DNA of 62,205 nucleotides, filler included, from a bacterium (GTDB lineage Bacteria > UBA9089 > CG2-30-40-21 > SBAY01): the NCBI GenBank assembly GCA_040757115.1. It is 5 parts of 5 records of this genome, joined end to end, with 100 filler letters (N's around TTAATTAATTAA, not from the genome) between each part and the next. Parts side by side here need not be neighbours in the genome. Positions count along the whole stretch, not along the records: positions 54,653 to 62,205 come from JBFLYA010000181.1; 4 more parts are not named here. One strand, 5' to 3'. Position 1 is the stretch's first letter, and each line of letters starts with the position of its first letter. The translations under genes and the position numbers were made by a program. The notes beneath the pieces are model-generated. The model ran no database searches. It worked only from the letters and a program-made list of their open reading frames with translations, and was not told the DNA's origin. Positions 43,439 through 62,071 of the stretch are shown piece after piece.

Positions 43439-44776
43439 TTACCTACTACCTGAATGGTTACCTCTAATCGTTATCTGTGAAGTAACAATTCCTTTTTCAA
43501 ATCCCAATTGATTTAGCAATTCAGTTTTAACGGGTAATATGCATTCATTCGCTGAGGGATTTAATTTAAACAACCAATCATACAAATTTTTGTATTTTTC
43601 CACTAATAGTTTTTGTTTTTTAATCTGGTCATGAAAGTATTTATTTGGCCAGAAACGTAAATCTCGTGGGACAAAAAGGATATGTGAATGTCCTAATTCA
43701 ACCAGTTCCACAAGTTTATGTGCCTCATGTTCAAATTGAACTACCTCTTGACTTTCTCCTCTCTCCGGGTCATCAACATTAGTCAGTCGAGGTTTTTTTA
43801 TCACGCGGAATGGCAAATCAAACATCTTTCTATCAATTGAGGTATGTAGCCAGCCCATATTGGTATTAAATTCTTCTATATTCAACAAATCATTATGGCT
43901 GTGTGGTGAAATTCGGGTAAGTTCTAAAATACCCGGTCCTGTTTGACCATCTGGTCGTTTCATCAGAACGCATTTTCCGCCTTTTTTGTCCTCTGCAGAT
44001 TGCCGGGCAGATTCAAACATTATTTGCACCTGTTGTGTTTCATTGAGCCAGGAAAAATATCCCGCGATAGTTAGGTCTATTTTTGCCTCAGAGTTATCCA
44101 CATTACAGATTAAAAGTATCTCTCCACCGTTATTAATAAATTCGTCATAAAGTCCACTTTTTTCAAACGCTTGATAGACATCGCCGTGTCCTTTAGTAAC
44201 GATACTTAATCTGCCGCTTTTGCGAGTAATTAATTCTGCGGTTTTGGGATTAATTCTTGGCCAACCCAAATCCTGGCAAAAATGTTTTGGTTTGACTTTC
44301 AGATTGAAATCATTAAATTTTTTAAGGTAGTCTTTTGTATCTTTATCTGTTGACGGACTATTCATAAAATATGTTGGTATGGGTAGTCCAGTTTGATAGA
44401 TAGAATAAAGTTTGATGGCAATAAAACTAATTGGTGTGAGCATAATTGCTTGAAATATACCTTTAGTTGGTCGATAGCCTAATTCTTTCTCATACGAAGT
44501 GGCAACACCACCGTTTAAGATTATCATCCCTAACTTACCATTTTCTGCCAGGTTAAATCCTCTTTGAGAAAAGTAATCTGGCATAAGCCCATTTTGTTGC
44601 TCAATTACAGATAACTCGTCATAAGAACTCATATATTTTGTTCCTTTTAATGAACAAATCTCACCATCATAAATTACTTCTAACTCATTTCGCAGGTATT
44701 TCTGGCGAATTTCACCAAATTTTTCTACATCCATTTCTGGATAATTTTTCTTTAACCAGTCTAAATTGTTATTCAT
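43439..44776 (-). CDS. UDP-sugar pyrophosphorylase, eukaryote-type UDPGP family
   Basis: ILNGGVATS, FMNS, FCQ, GHGDVY, NVDN, KKGG, FNTN; start set at MNNNL. Confidence 0.8.
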   Translation of the reverse strand: MNNNLDWLKKNYPEMDVEKFGEIRQKYLRNELEVIYDGEICSLKGTKYMSSYDELSVIEQQNGLMPDYFSQRGFNLAENGKLGMIILNGGVATSYEKELGYRPTKGIFQAIMLTPISFIAIKLYSIYQTGLPIPTYFMNSPSTDKDTKDYLKKFNDFNLKVKPKHFCQDLGWPRINPKTAELITRKSGRLSIVTKGHGDVYQAFEKSGLYDEFINNGGEILLICNVDNSEAKIDLTIAGYFSWLNETQQVQIMFESARQSAEDKKGGKCVLMKRPDGQTGPGILELTRISPHSHNDLLNIEEFNTNMGWLHTSIDRKMFDLPFRVIKKPRLTNVDDPERGESQEVVQFEHEAHKLVELVELGHSHILFVPRDLRFWPNKYFHDQIKKQKLLVEKYKNLYDWLFKLNPSANECILPVKTELLNQLGFEKGIVTSQITIRGNHSGSR

Positions 44777-45053
44777 AACCGTTCTCCTGAAAAATAGGAA
44801 GTAGAAAGTAGAGAGTAGAAAGTAGAGAGAAAATCTTTCCTCCACCTGTTTTTTCCTATTTCTCCTGAAAATGTGTGTAACTTGTTGTAATTATTAATGT
44901 TTTGTAATAGCGATAGGGAAGTAATACCGTCTCTTCTCTTAAAAACGCACAATATCCCCCTCCCGCCATCGTCTCAAAAACTATTTGTCTCTAAACTATC
45001 GCTCCCCTTCTATTAACAACCTATTATCCATAGATTTATACTATATATTCTAA

Positions 45054-45194
45054 ATATATGGTCAGCCAGCATAGCTATTAAAAATTTCTCCTGCGTGCTC
45101 TATGGCAACATTCCTTTGTTCTTATGTCTGGCTCGGTCAGTTTCTCCTTCGGGGTCTATACCACCAGTAACGCCCGACCTCTCTTACCATATAT
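45054..45194 (-). ncRNA. Candidate bridge/seek RNA with two guide loops
   Basis: 9-bp closing stem ATATATGGT/ACCATATAT; two covarying bulged hairpins with YATAGA loops, each followed by AGGAGAAA; G-U pairs favour the minus strand. Confidence 0.7.
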
Positions 45195-45209
45195 CCTTTT
45201 GTCTATATC

Positions 45210-46395
45210 CTATGCTACTTTCTTAAGAAAAACTACATCATAACCAAGATTGAGTAGTATCTTCCTGTAACTCCCTGCTATCTTCTTTCTCCTCTTCTCA
45301 TCAAGATAACTTATCCCAATCTCTTTATATCCTACTTTATTCTTCAAAATGTAATAACTCATTATCAATATCTTATGTCCTATCGCTACTAATGCTCGTT
45401 TCTTCCCCCGCCTACCTGCAAGACGGTGATACTTTGAATTTAAATAACTATCCTTCTTCTTTGACCCCGCCCAAGCACTTTCTGTTAATGTCACTTTTAA
45501 ACCTTTATTACCGTGAGTTGTCCCACAACTTTTTTTTTACCAGCACTCTCGTTATTCCCAGGACTCATTCCTGCCCACGAGGATAAATGTGCCTCTGTAG
45601 GAAATTTACTCATATCTACGCCTATCTCGGCTATTATGGAGGCGGCACTATCTCCTTTTACTCCAGGTATGGTCTGCAGTAATTCATACTCTTTCCTATA
45701 CTTATCTATCTTCTTGTCTATCTCCTCTTCTATTCTTTCTACTATCTCCTCTATCCCCCTAATATGTCTTAATGACTCCTTTATCATAAATTTATGATGC
45801 TCCTCAAATTTCCCAAATAACGCTTCTTTTATCACTTCTTTTTTCCCTTGTAGTCTCCCTCTGGCTAAATCGCTCATCTCCTCTATAGTTAATTTCCCCT
45901 TCATTAATTCCTCTATAATTTCACTCCCACTTACTCCAAATGTCTCTGTTACTACTGACGATAACTTTATATTCGCATCCTCTAATACCCTTTGTATCCT
46001 ATTCTTCTCCGCTGAAATAGATTGAACAAGCTTCCTCCTATACCTCGTCAAATCCCTTAACTCACGAATATCCCGCGGTGGGATAAAACTCCCTCTTACT
46101 AAACCATTCCTTAATAACTTACACAACCATTCAGCATCACAAACATCGGTCTTCCGACCAGGAACATACTTTATATGTCGTGCATTTACCAGTATAACCT
46201 CAAAATCCTCCTCTAATATGTTAAATACAGGCTTCCAATATACCCCTGTGCTTTCCATGGCTACATGAGTAACCCCCTTGCTCTTAAGCCATTCCCTTAA
46301 CTTCAGCAAATCGTTTGTAAATGTCCTGTAACTTCGCACCTCCTTCGCAATACCAATTCCATCAAACATGCAGTTAAACTTTCCTTGTGCACATC
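45210..46395 (-). pseudogene. IS110 DEDD recombinase, disrupted
   Basis: DVHKESLTACLM, MESTGVYWKP, RKTDVCDA, TIPGV, NNESAGK; 1-nt frameshift near 46359, -1 shift at the A9 run (45530-45538), N-terminus removed by IS66 insertion. Confidence 0.9.
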
Positions 46396-46885
46396 GTAAC
46401 TGCTCATCATCAAGTGGCAATCTGCACCTTACAGCTTCAACAGCCACATAATATCTAAAGAACCGTTTTTTATGGCGAAGGACCTCATGGATAACAAACT
46501 GCACTTCTTTGCCCGATCATCTCTGCTAAGGATGGCAGCCTGTATTCTCCAGAAAGTCTATCGTATAAATACTTACGAAAATTCACTCCAAGTTTTCGAC
46601 ATGTATCTTTAATTGACAAAAATATCTCCCAACTCCGTGTCCCTTCCTCACTTCTGGTCGGTATGATGATCTTGCGTTTTACAACATATTCCCTTACAGC
46701 TAATTCTGCTGGATTGTTGTGCAATGGCACTTCGGGATGATCTAAGACCACCAACAATCCTGATTTCCTTTCCATTGTTTTCGCTATGCATTCATCAAGT
46801 GTAACATATCCTGTTTTTACTGAAAAGAGTTTATCAAATGCCTCATTTAATCGTTTTTTCTCTTTCTCATCTGGATTGGATTTAT
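46396..46885 (-). mobile_element. IS66-family element right part (transposase C-terminus 46485-46885)
   Basis: FDKLFS..TGY..LD, HPEVPLHNNPAELAVR..KRK, TCRKLGVNF; terminal GTAACTGCTCA at 46396. Confidence 0.85.
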
Positions 46886-52884: not shown

Positions 52885-53178
52885 GTAACTATTCACCACG
52901 AAGGGCACGGAGAGCACGAAGTGAAATTTGATGAATTATCGAATAGAGTCATTGGATGCGCTATAGCGGTGCATCGAACTCTTGGGCCAGGTTTGCTTGA
53001 CACCGTGAAGAGTGATAATTCACAATTCACAATTGACAATTCACCATTTACCATTATTAAGGAAATTTAGGGAAGAAATTGTGAATGGTGAATGGTGAAT
53101 AGTTACCAATTTTTTAATAATATCTCCCTATCTCCTTAATCTCCACATCTCCTTTTGTTACACCACCTGAACGCTTAC
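52885..53178. mobile_element. Composite IS66-type MITE with perfect 8-bp target duplication AAAGTAAG, carrying a GxxExxY 5' fragment
   Basis: Direct repeats at 52877-52884 and 53179-53186; 52885-53000 matches 25641-25526; 53107-53178 matches ~47184-47255; nested in outer GTAA unit 52828-53362. Confidence 0.9.
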
Positions 53179-53197: not shown

Positions 53198-53332
53198 AGG
53201 AGAAATCCTCATACCCCTCCAGGGCACAAATGACGATGAAAATTGAGCATAGAGATTGGAGATTAGAGATTAGCAAGAGTGCAGGTTCTAATTCACTAAT
53301 TCTCTAATCTCTAATTAACTATTTTCAGGAAA
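53198..53332 (+). mobile_element. AGGAGA-type (IS110-like) MITE
   Basis: AGGAGAAATCCTCAT..CACAAATGACGATGAAAAT...ATTTTCAGGA; same interior as 61461-61583. Confidence 0.78.
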
Positions 53333-58754: not shown

Positions 58755-58803
58755 ATTTTAAAATATTATCAGAGGAATTCACTCTTGTCAAATCTTTTTT
58801 TGG

Positions 58804-59134
58804 GTAAGCGTTCAGCCACAGAGGCACAGAGTTCACAGAGAATTAAGGAAATTAACCACAAATGCACACGAATTAACCTCTGACATCCCATAAATGTAGT
58901 GCGAATCTTTAGGTTCGCCTTTTGGCTTGCCAGAAGCGAGGCTAAAGCCTCATACTACAAATTTTTTCCACCTGTGCAATTAGACTAATTCATCGCAGAG
59001 ACGCAAAGGAAAATAAATGTAAAATGTAAAACAGGAAATGAAAAATGGGAAATTTTAGTCCTTCGCAAGACTCATTACCTTTCAGTTATACATTTTCATT
59101 TTACATTATCCATTTTACATTTAACCGCACAGGT
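58804..59134. mobile_element. IS66-type MITE with REP doublet (58896-58958) abutted by an ACCTGTGC MITE (58970-59134)
   Basis: Inverted homologs of 25708-25949 and 169-342. Confidence 0.8.
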
Positions 59135-59233
59135 CGAATTTTTTTAAGAAATTCTTGGTCAGCCTCTTGACAAATTTAAAGAAATATGGTATGTTAATCC
59201 CACATTAACTTTTGAGAGAAAAAGGTTTGTTAG

Positions 59234-59595
59234 AGGAGAAACGCTCATGCCCCTGCAGGGCACAAACGAAGATGAAAATGGGTTTGATGGTTTGATGGTT
59301 CAGGTGAAATCAGGCTGAAGCCTGCGGCTACCAGCCTTCTCGAGTCCCGAACCCCGAGTCCCGAGTCCCGAATTTAAGGGGGAATAAACTTGCTTTTCAT
59401 CGGTTCCTTGGTCTATGGTCTATGGTCTCTAGTCTATTTTCAGGAGAAACGGTCATGAACCGTGGGTTCACAAATGAGGATGAAAATAGTAGGTAGGAGA
59501 TAGAAGGTGGGAGGTAAGGAGATAGGCGTGAGGAGTGATGTTTTCTTTACTTTCTACTTTCTACTCTCTACTCTCTACTTCCTATTTTCAGGAGA
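59234..59595 (+). mobile_element. Tandem pair of AGGAGA-type MITEs in the RBS of nhaD
   Basis: AGGAGA at 59234, 59442 and 59590 delimit two units beginning AACG(C/G)TCATG and ending ATTTTC. Confidence 0.82.
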
Positions 59596-59600
59596 ATTAT

Positions 59601-60884
59601 ATGATGATGATTATGGTTGCAGTTGTATTTGTGCTTGCCTACACAATGATAGCCTTTGAATATTCGCTGAAGATTAACAAATCTGCCATTGCCCTGCTTG
59701 CCGCAGGCTTGATGTGGACACTGTATTCTTTTGCCAGCCCGCTTGGAGTGGAAGTCGTAAACCATCAGCTTACCGAAAATTTGGCTGAAACAGCGGCAGT
59801 CGTATTCTTTCTTATATGCGCTATGACTATTGTGGAAATAATTGACTCCCATGGAGGGTTTGAAGTCATTACCTCGCGGATTAAGGCAAAAAAACTCTTA
59901 AGCCTGCTCTGGATTATCGGATTCATTACTTTTTATCTATCAGCAATTCTCGATAATATGGCCACAACTATCGCGATGATTGCCTTAATGAAGCGATTGC
60001 TCAAGGAACGTAAGCAGAGACTCTTTTTTGCAGGCATCATCGTCATTGCGGCAAATGCAGGCGGAGCATGGAGTCCTATGGGCGATATAACCACTACTAT
60101 GCTCTGGATAGGCGGACAGATTTCCACTGTTAATATTATAAAAGGTGTATGGCTTCCTTCTATGCTCAATTTGGTGGTTCCCCTTATAATAACTTCTTTC
60201 TTCCTGAAGGGAAACATTGTGCCGCCAGATGATATAGAAGATAGAGCGACAAACATCTCGCAATTTGAGAAAAACCTGATGTTTTTTATTGGTATAGGTG
60301 CTTTGATTTTTGTCCCGATATTCAAGGCAATAACGCATTTACCTCCCTATCTTGGCATTCTGTTTACTCTTGGCATAGTCTCGCTGACCAGCAATATCCT
60401 GCATCGCCATAAGTCTGATGAGGAAAAAGAGCATCTCACCCTAACCAGGGCGCTTAAGAAAATTGATATGGCATCGGCTATATTCTTTATAGGCATTTTG
60501 CTTGCTGTGGCTACGCTTTCCGCAAATGGCATGCTTCCTGCTCTGGGGCATTGGCTTGATGCTAAAATCGGTAGTCAGGCTCTAATTGTCATTATCGTGG
60601 GGTTTGCTTCAGCAATAGTAGGTAATATTCCTCTTGTAGCGGCTTCTATGGGAATGTATCCTCTTTGTCAATTTCCGCAGGACTCTCTTATTTGGGAGAT
60701 TATGGCTTATTGTACCGGTACCGGAGGTTCGATTTTGATAATCGGTTCAGCGGCGGGTGTGGCGGCAATGGGTTTAGAGAAAATCGAGTTCTTCTGGTAT
60801 GCCAGCCGTATTGGTCCTCTTGCCTTTATTGGATATTTTTGCGGAATAGTGGCTTATCTAATTCAGTATAATCTCCTGCATTGA
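59601..60884 (+). CDS. nhaD: NhaD-type Na+/H+ antiporter
   Basis: INKSA.AL, AMTIVEIIDSHGGF, SAILDN, ANAGGAWSPMGDITT, GTGGSILIIGSAAGVAAMG. Confidence 0.88.
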   Translation: MMMIMVAVVFVLAYTMIAFEYSLKINKSAIALLAAGLMWTLYSFASPLGVEVVNHQLTENLAETAAVVFFLICAMTIVEIIDSHGGFEVITSRIKAKKLLSLLWIIGFITFYLSAILDNMATTIAMIALMKRLLKERKQRLFFAGIIVIAANAGGAWSPMGDITTTMLWIGGQISTVNIIKGVWLPSMLNLVVPLIITSFFLKGNIVPPDDIEDRATNISQFEKNLMFFIGIGALIFVPIFKAITHLPPYLGILFTLGIVSLTSNILHRHKSDEEKEHLTLTRALKKIDMASAIFFIGILLAVATLSANGMLPALGHWLDAKIGSQALIVIIVGFASAIVGNIPLVAASMGMYPLCQFPQDSLIWEIMAYCTGTGGSILIIGSAAGVAAMGLEKIEFFWYASRIGPLAFIGYFCGIVAYLIQYNLLH

Positions 60885-61084
60885 GACTTGAATGCTTCAC
60901 CGAGAATTGCTGAGGGTTAAGGATTTTTGTTGACAATAGGGAAAGATTATGGTAACATATTCCCATAATGGGCAAAAGTGAAGGTAATATCTGAATTCGA
61001 GCAAAGCAAGAATTCGTAAGAATGTTGCGTCCGCAAAATGTTGCGAAGCAAAAAATGTCCCCAAAAGCAAATTACTATCAGTGG

Positions 61085-61583
61085 AGGAGAAACGCTCATG
61101 CCCCTGCAGGGCACAAATGACGATGAAAATAGGGAGGGAACACACCCCTACACCCCTCTCAAGAGGGGAATATAACAGTTATTAGTCAAAACTTTACTCA
61201 GAGTGGATAATAAAAAAATCCCAAATCTCAAGCACCAAATTCCACATACCAAAAAGCGAATTAGAGATTAGTGAATTAGAGATTAGATTTTACTAATTCG
61301 CTAATTCGCTTAATTCACTAATTCACTAATTGGAATTTGGAATTTGTGATTTGGAATTTCAGAGCCATATCTATGTCAAATTTTGATTAATAAGTGCTAT
61401 ACAACCCCCTACCCCCCTTTGTTAAGGGGGAATAAACTTATGGTCTGTGGTCTATTTTCCGGAGAAACGCTCATGCCCACAGGGAGTGGGCACAAAGGAG
61501 GATGAAAATCGGGCATAGAGATTAGAGATTAGCAAGAGTGCAGGTTCTAATTCTCTAATCTCTAATTAACTATTTTCAGGAGA
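61085..61583 (+). mobile_element. Tandem pair of AGGAGA-type MITEs in an RBS; first unit contains a nested TATAG MITE (61171-61401)
   Basis: (A)GGAGA at 61085, 61461 and 61578; ATG follows at 61589. Confidence 0.82.
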
Positions 61584-61588
61584 CCTTT

Positions 61589-62071
61589 ATGAAAAACCGA
61601 TTACTAAGATTTTTATTCATTGCAGTAGTTTTCCTAACATTATTCTCAATAGCAAGTAGTGTATATGGTTCTACCGAACCATATACACTACCAGCAACAG
61701 AAAAAGATTTACAGCTTCCATGGTGGGCATGGTCAATTATTTTACTCGTCTTCACATTTATACTTGGAATTCTGGCTGTACTTGGCGGCGTTGGAGGTGG
61801 TGTCTTGTTCGTCCCGCTTGTTGGAGGATTTTTCCCCTTTCATATTGACTTTGTCAGGGGCGCTGGTCTTATAGTAGCACTCTCTGGCACCCTTGCAGCA
61901 GGCCCTGGACTTCTCAAGAGAAATCTTGCAAGTCTGCGTCTTGCCCTTCCAGTAGCACTGATTGCATCAACAGTAGCAATAGTAGGCGCAATGATAGGGC
62001 TTGCCCTTCCTGCATATTTAGTCAATATCCTTCCCGGTACAACCATAATACTCGATGTTCAAATTTTTTAG
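61589..62071 (+). pseudogene. TSUP/TauE-family permease truncated by an element end at 62051
   Basis: GVGGGVLFVP, FVRGAGL; only 160 aa; CTCGATGTTCAA end also present inverted at 47099-47110. Confidence 0.72.

Follow-up and report, generated by a model that had tools for sequence, protein, structure and literature searches.

The stretch of DNA analysed here (the window, 62,205 nt in length) carries short repeated units that end in the Shine-Dalgarno (SD) word AGGAGA and stand just before the start codons of several genes. These units are very probably non-autonomous derivatives of an insertion sequence (IS) of the IS110 family and IS1111 type, named IS-B, of which they would keep about 50 nt of the left end and the last 12 nt; they resemble MITEs (miniature inverted-repeat transposable elements) and would be guided to the SD sequence of host genes. 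The first-pass annotation had proposed IS110-derived MITEs that insert into ribosome-binding sites, a reading supported by the present analysis, in which none of the contrary outcomes that were tested for was found. The genome under study (G000) comprises 462 contigs and 4.32 Mb with 36.8% G+C. The window is a scaffold of five contigs (C88-C92) with runs of N between them, therefore IS-B (on C90) and the two arrays of units (on C92) are linked by scaffolding only. Public sequencing runs containing the stretch belong to a single study and are labelled as groundwater metagenome. A second, unrelated IS110 element of this genome is named IS-A.

All units described earlier in the window were seen at their places, including a degenerate copy and a right half on the minus strand, and the spacing of 5-6 nt claimed between the terminal AGGAGA and the ATG was recovered at three genes (start codons at 59601, 61589 and, on the minus strand, 44776):

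59234-59239, plus strand: AGGAGA at the left border of array 1, taken as the original SD of the host gene and as the left half of the target
59240-59447, plus strand: unit 1, with the hairpin TGCCC-ctgca-GGGCA, a composite cargo and the right end ATTTTCAGGAGA at 59436-59447
59448-59595, plus strand: unit 2, with the hairpin TGAACC-gtg-GGTTCA; GAAAAT/ATTTTC closes its long cargo hairpin
59590-59595, plus strand: terminal AGGAGA of unit 2, in the SD position for the transporter gene
59601-60884, plus strand: CitMHS/NhaD-like transporter gene (PF03600, E 3e-29), ATG 5 nt past the AGGAGA of unit 2
61085-61090, plus strand: AGGAGA at the left border of array 2
61091-61465, plus strand: unit 3, with the right end ATTTTCCGGAGA and a repeat of another family nested in its cargo (about 61171-61401)
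61466-61583, plus strand: unit 4, with the hairpin TGCCCAC-aggga-GTGGGCA and the terminal AGGAGA at 61578-61583
61589-62071, plus strand: gene of a TauE/TSUP-like membrane protein (PF01925, E 1.8e-5, under the curated cut-off), ATG 5 nt past the AGGAGA
53204-53332, plus strand: degenerate single unit with left end AATCCTCATA and right end ATTTTCAGGAAA, followed by another repeat and no gene start
44783-44860, minus strand: partial unit (cargo and right end without the hairpin left end), between the right end of the IS110 element and the UDPGP gene
43439-44776, minus strand: UDP-sugar pyrophosphorylase (UDPGP) family gene (PF01704, E 3e-34), ATG 6 nt past the AGGAGA of the partial unit

The general form of a unit is AGGAGA|AACGCTCATG-hairpin-CACAAA..GATGAAAAT-variable hairpin-ATTTTCAGGAGA. 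At the left end AAC-G-nn-CATG, a hairpin of 5-7 bp and CACAAA followed by ..GATGAAAAT are kept, and at the right end ATTTTCAGGRGA; the hairpin between the two ends is replaceable and is closed by a 7-bp subterminal inverted repeat, TGAAAAT/ATTTTCA. A profile search with nhmmer located 191 left ends in the genome. For 177 of them a right end follows at no more than 600 nt, and unit length has a median of 148 nt. The exact 12-mer ATTTTCAGGRGA is present in 249 copies and the reversed motif in none; when up to one mismatch is allowed the counts are 495 and 67, respectively. The repeat pattern is far beyond chance. The left-end hairpin could be parsed in 177 of the 191 left ends and takes 70 distinct forms, with a contiguous stem of at least 5 bp in 153 of the 177. 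Stems of at least 6 bp occur in 132 of the 177, compared with a mean of 40.5 and a maximum of 54 when the arms were randomly re-paired among copies (200 trials), so the covariation reported from a handful of copies holds across the genome. In the predicted fold of unit 2 (minimum free energy -55.9 kcal/mol, z -4.72), as in that of unit 4, the AGGAGA is unpaired. The units have ends in common with autonomous-type elements, lack a transposase gene and are present in many copies, as is expected of MITEs, but their ends are not mutual inverted repeats and the flanking AGGAGA represents target plus donor end, with no duplication. For want of terminal inverted repeats and of a target-site duplication, "MITE-like" is the accurate term.

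No Rfam family covers the units or the IS-B RNA: the scan of the window at gathering thresholds returned one tRNA only, and permissive scans gave hairpin look-alikes far below threshold. A small open reading frame (ORF) beginning at the ATG of ..CTCATG.., which has an AGGAGA before it, was considered and rejected, since the reading frames differ between units and hence these hold no conserved peptide. A hammerhead or other ribozyme core, suggested by GATGA and GAAA words, was likewise dropped, with no Rfam match to it.

The insertion of the units at the SD position was evaluated on the arrays whose left flank is other than a unit (74, of which 66 were evaluable). In 22 of the 66 arrays the last AGGRGA is followed at a distance of 3-9 nt by the start of an ORF of at least 80 aa, and in 34 such a start lies within 0-19 nt, the additional 12 having it at 0-2 or 10-19 nt. 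The same test was passed by 633 of 20,000 random positions and by 367 of 5,910 ordinary AGGRGA hexamers, which confirms the enrichment that had been predicted from the window; among terminal right ends the figure is 82 of 329. Altogether, 97 right ends have an ORF of at least 80 aa beginning 3-12 nt behind them. With the ORF length set to at least 100 aa, 393 AGGAGA hexamers precede a start at that distance, and 65 of these belong to units as their right ends. In 71 distinct array-start flanks position -1 is A in all 71, -2 is G in 61, -3 is A in 58, -4 and -5 are G in 62 each, -6 is A in 54, and -7 is A in 27 or C in 26, with nothing beyond, giving the consensus [A/C]AGGAGA. The base that follows the right end is A in 82% of the 65 element-borne SDs versus 33% of 328 ordinary ones. 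As in IS900-type insertion, the units lie between the SD and the start codon in a fixed orientation.

The border hexamer varies with its place in the array. AGGAGA and AGGGGA occur 38 and 2 times at array starts, 37 and 48 times at internal junctions, and 65 and 13 times at terminal ends before genes; this could reflect selection for a working ribosome site or the history of subfamilies. The first of these two options bears on another explanation, namely that the host keeps the units as modular elements of 5' leaders that tune translation or mRNA stability. This role is compatible with an origin from IS-B and is considered improbable: units supply the SD of 65 of the 393 AGGAGA-type starts, the SD is unpaired beside a strong hairpin in the two folds mentioned, and the terminal hexamer looks as if the last one were selected. 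Conversely, unit content and number differ at the same genes in two genomes that are about 98% identical, and the contrast between A and G can also come from subfamilies that were active at different times.

The element from which the units would derive is represented in the window by a damaged copy:

44861-46395, minus strand: IS-B, IS110 family, IS1111 type, its 5' part cut by an IS66-family element; right end ATTTTCAGGAGA at 44872-44861
46372-45210, minus strand: IS-B transposase gene, with a frameshift at a run of 9 A and a non-coding region of about 350 nt 3' of it
46396-46885, minus strand: end of the IS66-family element that interrupts IS-B (PF03050, E 3e-8); the contig ends inside it

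The transposase shows both domains of the DEDD enzymes of the IS110 family (PF01548, E 2.2e-26, matched from profile position 25 and N-terminally cut; PF02371, E 1.9e-13), and the element does end at 44872-44861 in the right end of the units, as had been noted. The proposal that it represents the parent type stands as far as the shared ends are concerned; the copy itself is defective, on account of the IS66-family interruption and the frameshift. The run of nine A (45530-45545, minus strand) splits the transposase into two frames, and with one A more the conserved C-terminal motif would be restored; a sequencing error, a dead copy or slippage could each account for it. The end of the IS66-family element is repeated on contigs C245 and C412.

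Relatives of the transposase with 66-73% protein identity were found in other phyla, at nine loci of genomes (L012-L020) and 13 of metagenomes (L132-L144). On contigs that extend far enough, their left end, GA|AACnnnCATG-hairpin-CAC..ATGAAAAT, lies 150-180 nt before the ATG of the transposase, and at 350-600 nt past the gene they end in ATTTTCAGGTGA or ATTTTCAGGGGA. The right end can be written as ATTTTCAGG(T/G)GA, and the ATTTTCAGGNGA right end stands behind a conserved 3' bridge/seek RNA. IS110 elements with both termini of the units, which the first-pass annotation had called for, therefore exist, and because these relatives carry the same two ends the units are best read as internal-deletion derivatives of an IS of the IS-B type. 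The 7-bp repeat TGAAAAT/ATTTTCA is conserved in units and relatives alike, its left copy about 40 nt and its right copy 5 nt from the ends. In G000 itself, one subfamily of units consists of the left end and about 32 nt matching the last bases of IS-B, and at the contig ends of C267 and C130 a related 3' end is followed by complete units.

The same shared sequence could be explained in another way, if the units were independent repeats comparable to repetitive extragenic palindromic (REP) sequences on which IS110 elements merely land, ATTTTCAGGAGA being then the target and not an end. Repeat targeting is known for IS110-family elements (PMC11208160, in the portion available), and IS-A does precisely this in G000: 25 contig ends carry its end inside unit left ends, beside hairpins that differ, while the next 120 nt are identical. 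However, no such repeat family was seen around the IS-B relatives of other phyla, in which the hairpin and ATTTTCAGGNGA ends are the element's own borders; moreover, the outer flanks of these relatives vary and are matched by loop 1 of the guide RNA, whereas loop 2 equals the right end. Independent repeats are thus already largely refuted as an explanation and are regarded as very unlikely.

IS-A, for its part, appears from its sequence to be an RNA-guided parasite of the units and not their parent. It encodes a transposase of 412 aa on the opposite strand, preceded by a 5' leader of about 590 nt, and its insertion site is fixed inside unit left ends (CACAAAG | GACGATGAAAAT), with 25 contig ends on one side and 17 on the other. 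Its junctions share CT, and the leader contains the words ATCGTCCTCG (left target, core and own end) and ACAAAG (complement of the right target); the 5' position of the RNA, the CT core and these guide words liken IS-A to the IS621 type. The only assembled copy is L009 (G018:C289, 1-2196), 98% identical to the ends in G000. G018 belongs to another family of the same phylum, and the presence of IS-A there could be due to a recent transfer or to a contig mis-binned from a shared sample.

The programming of insertion at the SD is suggested by the non-coding region 3' of the IS-B transposase gene, where a guide RNA was predicted:

45040-45190, minus strand: predicted bridge/seek RNA of IS-B, from alignment and consensus fold; only copy in the assembly
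within 45179-45161, minus strand: 5' strand of the first internal loop
45149-45140, minus strand: loop-1 guide AAGGAGAAAC
45093-45080, minus strand: loop-2 guide CAGGAGAAATTTTT

All close relatives share this structured segment, in which GGTCG is followed by a variable strand with TTAC at its end, then by a short hairpin, CCCCG, a stretch of ten variable bases and TGACC; after these come a second domain, whose closing stem covaries, GAGCACG and a run of fourteen bases. Of nine close genome loci eight carry the conserved segment, and in the ninth the contig stops within it. Loop 1, of ten bases, ends in GAAAC and its first part repeats the DNA to the left of the element: in 16 elements it agrees with its own left flank at 4.19 of 5 variable positions, compared with 1.73 of 5 for non-cognate pairs, and none of 10,000 permutations reached this sum. 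Loop 2, of fourteen bases, starts with the last seven bases of the element (7/7) in all six elements whose right end was found; in L017, the seventh element considered, no right end was identified. In some elements, among them L020 and L143 with 6 of 6 positions, the strand that faces loop 1 has a sequence complementary to the DNA on the right of the element, a match that is weak over all elements. A 3' non-coding region with a guide RNA, and guides that match target flank and element end and change with them, are the features of the IS1111 group. The order of the matches agrees as well, since in IS1111 seekRNAs a top-strand complement precedes a bottom-strand match (PMC11187229), and the layout as a whole is likewise that of IS1111 seekRNAs and bridge RNAs (PMC11187229; PMC11208160; available portions of both).

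In the window copy loop 1 (AAGGAGAAAC) reads AAGGAGA(AAC) and loop 2 (CAGGAGAAAT) reads CAGGAGA(AAT); the programmed target is consequently an SD followed by A, and the donor end nearly the same word. The left target predicted from this, AAGGAGA, agrees with the consensus of the 71 array-start flanks. In the relatives the crossover lies within a shared GAAA; since target and donor have AGGAGAAA in common, its exact point cannot be placed. Within the clade, L021 and L022 (58% identity) carry a homologous RNA (GGTCG .. CCCCG-guide-CTGAC ..) upstream of the transposase gene, so the RNA has changed sides. Words resembling an SD are also seen in other members, as loop 1 of L141 (CAGGAGAAAC) and in the flanks of L137 and L140 (CGAAGGA), and retargeting to purine-rich, SD-like words may recur.

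Hairpins near both ends and strand-specific insertion 3' of a fixed word with no obvious target duplication are also the marks of palindrome-associated elements moved by a Y1 transposase (IS200/IS605 or REP-associated), which insert 3' of a short word in single-stranded DNA. Such an origin is regarded as extremely improbable, because the two ends belong to a DEDD element whose guide loops explain the target (no Y1 search of the genome was made), and because the left hairpin and the cargo hairpins are unrelated, unlike what is seen in IS200/IS605 and REP elements.

For units derived from IS-B, the following mechanism is proposed. The DEDD recombinase and its RNA, supplied in trans from full-length copies that are missing in the assembly, would excise units as circles, which would recombine into AGGAGA|A within the shared GAAA. 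The host SD would stay at the left border, and the unit's own AGGAGA would end 3-8 nt before the start codon; because the unit supplies this word itself, translation would survive and insertion would be nearly neutral. Insertion would also remake target-like sequence: the left border would read AGGAGA|AACGC.. and the right one ..CAGGAGA|A. As each event recreates the target at both borders, further units could stack head to tail. Movement of the units in trans by the IS-B recombinase and RNA is plausible since PMC11187229, in the available part, describes a mini-IS (left end 50 bp, right end 46 bp) that is mobilised by an IS1111-type transposase and seekRNA provided in trans.

Stacking, which had been attributed to target regeneration, is common across the genome. 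A left end directly follows a right end in 117 of 191 cases, and runs of right ends with gaps of up to 450 nt comprise 263 singles (a count that includes chance matches), 63 doubles, 18 triples, five runs of 4, four of 5 and two of 6. Hairpin or cargo differs in 49 of 50 adjacent pairs of units. The sequence of the tandem junction is the same as that of a circle junction. The hairpin left end is missing from 37 of 140 segments between right ends, which start with AAT and cargo or with AAGG.GATGAAAAT, as if recombination had also used an internal, target-like GATGA|AAAT word.

Recent activity is supported by the distribution of the family, which is nearly confined to one genus, and by differing numbers of units at loci shared by G000 and G001. 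A strict left-end pattern matched 94 times in G000, 82 in its sister genome G001, 4 in G003, once in G004 and not at all in 37 other relatives, and the reversed control gave no match anywhere. G001, a congener about 98% identical to G000 at shared genes, served for the comparison of alleles. At the C86 locus, before a GTG start and between identical flanks, G000 has one unit and G001 two of the same subfamily; at one further locus shared by the two genomes, two units stand against three, the third of them truncated. An aminotransferase-like gene is preceded by three units in G000 and by none in G001, where the leader is a plain AAGGAGA-8 nt-ATG and 2.7 kb upstream also differ; a GTTTCAGRAGA|AAC site holds five units in G000 and none in G001, with other changes too. 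Length differs between the genomes at C49 and C322. In G001 the nhaD-like locus breaks at the border of units 1 and 2 and the counterpart of C156 at the array, the differences at C68 belong to other repeat families, and C451 and C452 have no ortholog at useful identity there. Logan contigs over 58760-62070 are short and broken at repeats, none runs across an array, and the joints listed come from other copies.

Some of these data would also fit units that derive from IS-B but whose arrays owe their growth chiefly to unequal homologous recombination or replication slippage, with guided insertion in a minor role. The two units of the same subfamily at C86 in G001 against one in G000 favour this, and so does the existence of hybrid and truncated units, such as the 37 of 140 segments that lack a left end. 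Duplication would not, however, produce neighbours that differ in hairpin or cargo in 49 of 50 pairs, and the guide of the window copy, although its assignment is weak, predicts AAGGAGA|AACGCC, that is, the left border of an existing unit. Growth mainly by recombination or slippage is accordingly held to be unlikely.

Several observations weigh against guided insertion of IS-B derivatives as set out above. With regard to the parent, an intact IS-B was found neither in the G000 assembly, where the copy in the window is the only one, nor among 40 relatives searched at the protein level (E<=1e-20), and the closest proteins in public collections reach 73% identity in genomes and 71% in metagenomes. 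The window copy being broken, and no more than two other right ends having been seen at contig ends, recombinase and guide RNA come from a source that the model has to assume. The right end of the units amounts to 12 conserved bases. With regard to the guides, the one for the right target agrees with its flank at 2.20 of 5 positions versus 1.53, a sum reached by 295 of 10,000 permutations; in the window copy it predicts AACGCC, which fits the start of another unit, not a native spacer, so that first insertions at native sites would need to proceed on a half-match. No RNA segment covaries with left-end positions 4-7 in the alignment, which was inspected by eye, and a guide for the left end was not found. 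With regard to location, 32 of the 66 arrays have no gene start within 20 nt, many of them running into other repeats, contig ends or a nested IS. Lastly, unit numbers differ between G000 and G001, but a clean empty site was not found, both zero-unit alleles of G001 being accompanied by other rearrangements.

Further features surround the arrays on C92. Two promoter-like sites were noted:

59167-59195: TTGACA-17-TATGTT, upstream of array 1
60930-60958: TTGACA-17-TAACAT, upstream of array 2

Each shows 10 of 12 matches together with a TG, and on the basis of their position upstream of both arrays the C92 units would lie inside 5' leaders. On the minus strand, at 59242-59268 and 61095-61117, the left-end hairpin is followed by TTTCTCCT with a terminator-like score, and it could stop transcription that leaves the element or runs antisense to it. 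The repeat nested in unit 3 (about 61171-61401) belongs to a family with inverted ends TATAGCAC/GTTATTA..TTTGAC that is present or absent at other loci when G000 (C68, C405) and G001 are compared, and several more hairpin-repeat families differ between these genomes. Two clusters of about 80 contig ends each represent a further element of very high copy number, one end of which (53100-53150) is found a short way upstream of the unit at 53204.

Targeting of translation signals by an IS110-family element (IS900) and one MITE of this family (MITEPpu9) are already in print. In the literature searched (subscription journals not covered) no swarm of hundreds of such SD-targeting units was found, nor a donor end that rebuilds the ribosome site, nor near-identical target and donor guides, nor the tandem stacking that results. 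It is conceivable, while short of probable, that a bridge/seek-RNA recombinase has been naturally retargeted to the SD, as the functional word that is commonest in the genome, and that its donor end has evolved to the same word, which would make insertion both self-healing and self-seeding. If so, a genus-specific take-over would have left about one in six AGGAGA-type ribosome sites element-borne, with leaders growing by modular stacking; the covarying left-end hairpin and the 7-bp repeat would constitute a cis requirement outside the current guide RNA model; and the guidance of IS-A to the unit left end would complete a three-level chain of RNA-guided parasites. For transposon biology, the long-known landing of IS900-type elements on translation signals would be tied to a guide-RNA mechanism, and converged target and donor guides would account for near-neutral insertion, target regeneration, tandem arrays and a burst to hundreds of copies. 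Research on bridge recombinases would gain a natural set of minimal donors, consisting of a left part of about 50 nt that includes a hairpin and a right part of 12 nt, along with numerous instances of natural retargeting within a single clade and an indication of a structural cis element in addition to base pairing. In practice, gene-start and operon calls in these genomes should allow for the units, which add 0.1-0.8 kb to 5' leaders and bring in the ribosome site; the units also account for part of the fragmentation of the assemblies.

Comparison with known systems, based on the available portions of the publications cited, places IS-B closest to the IS1111 group (ISEc11, ISPa11, ISKpn4; PMC11187229; PMC11208160). 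Common to both are a DEDD transposase (PF01548 and PF02371), a long 3' non-coding region, a structured RNA with a top- and then a bottom-strand target match, natural retargeting through altered guides, and mini-elements that move in trans, such movement being presumed in the present case. Inverted repeats in subterminal position measure 7-17 bp in IS1111 elements according to PMC11208160, while PMC11187229 gives a usual length of 11-13 bp and extensions of 7 and 3 bp; the comparable repeat of IS-B has 7 bp and its left copy lies about 40 nt inside, behind the covarying hairpin, instead of 6-7 nt. IS-B also differs in that target and donor guides are almost the same word, and its clade in that L021 and L022 have the RNA upstream of the gene. 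The IS621 bridge RNA (PMC11208160) similarly has a target loop and a donor loop and recombines at a short shared core; in IS-B, by contrast, the RNA lies on the 3' side, the core falls within GAAA and not CT, and the guide for the other donor half was not found.

MITEPpu9/ssr9 of ISPpu9 from Pseudomonas putida (PMC12288879) is, like the units, small, has IS110-like ends and occurs in some tandem copies, and is thought to move with a transposase in trans; it is present in eight copies, holds a small RNA gene and resides in REP sequences, whereas the units number hundreds, carry replaceable hairpin cargo and sit on ribosome-binding sites. As regards target, a precedent is offered by IS900 and its mycobacterial relatives (PMC8141618; Doran et al.). 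The available accounts describe IS900 as a full IS with 16-22 copies per genome that exploits host signals for its own hed ORF, and contain no description of a MITE swarm, a rebuilt host SD or tandem stacking. The target motif of IS900, CATGNNNNNNTCTCCTT, is the reverse complement of AAGGAGA-N6-CATG, and as with the units insertion occurs in one orientation, between ribosome site and start codon; the AAGGAGA of this motif, at a gene start, is identical to the seven bases of loop 1 in the window.

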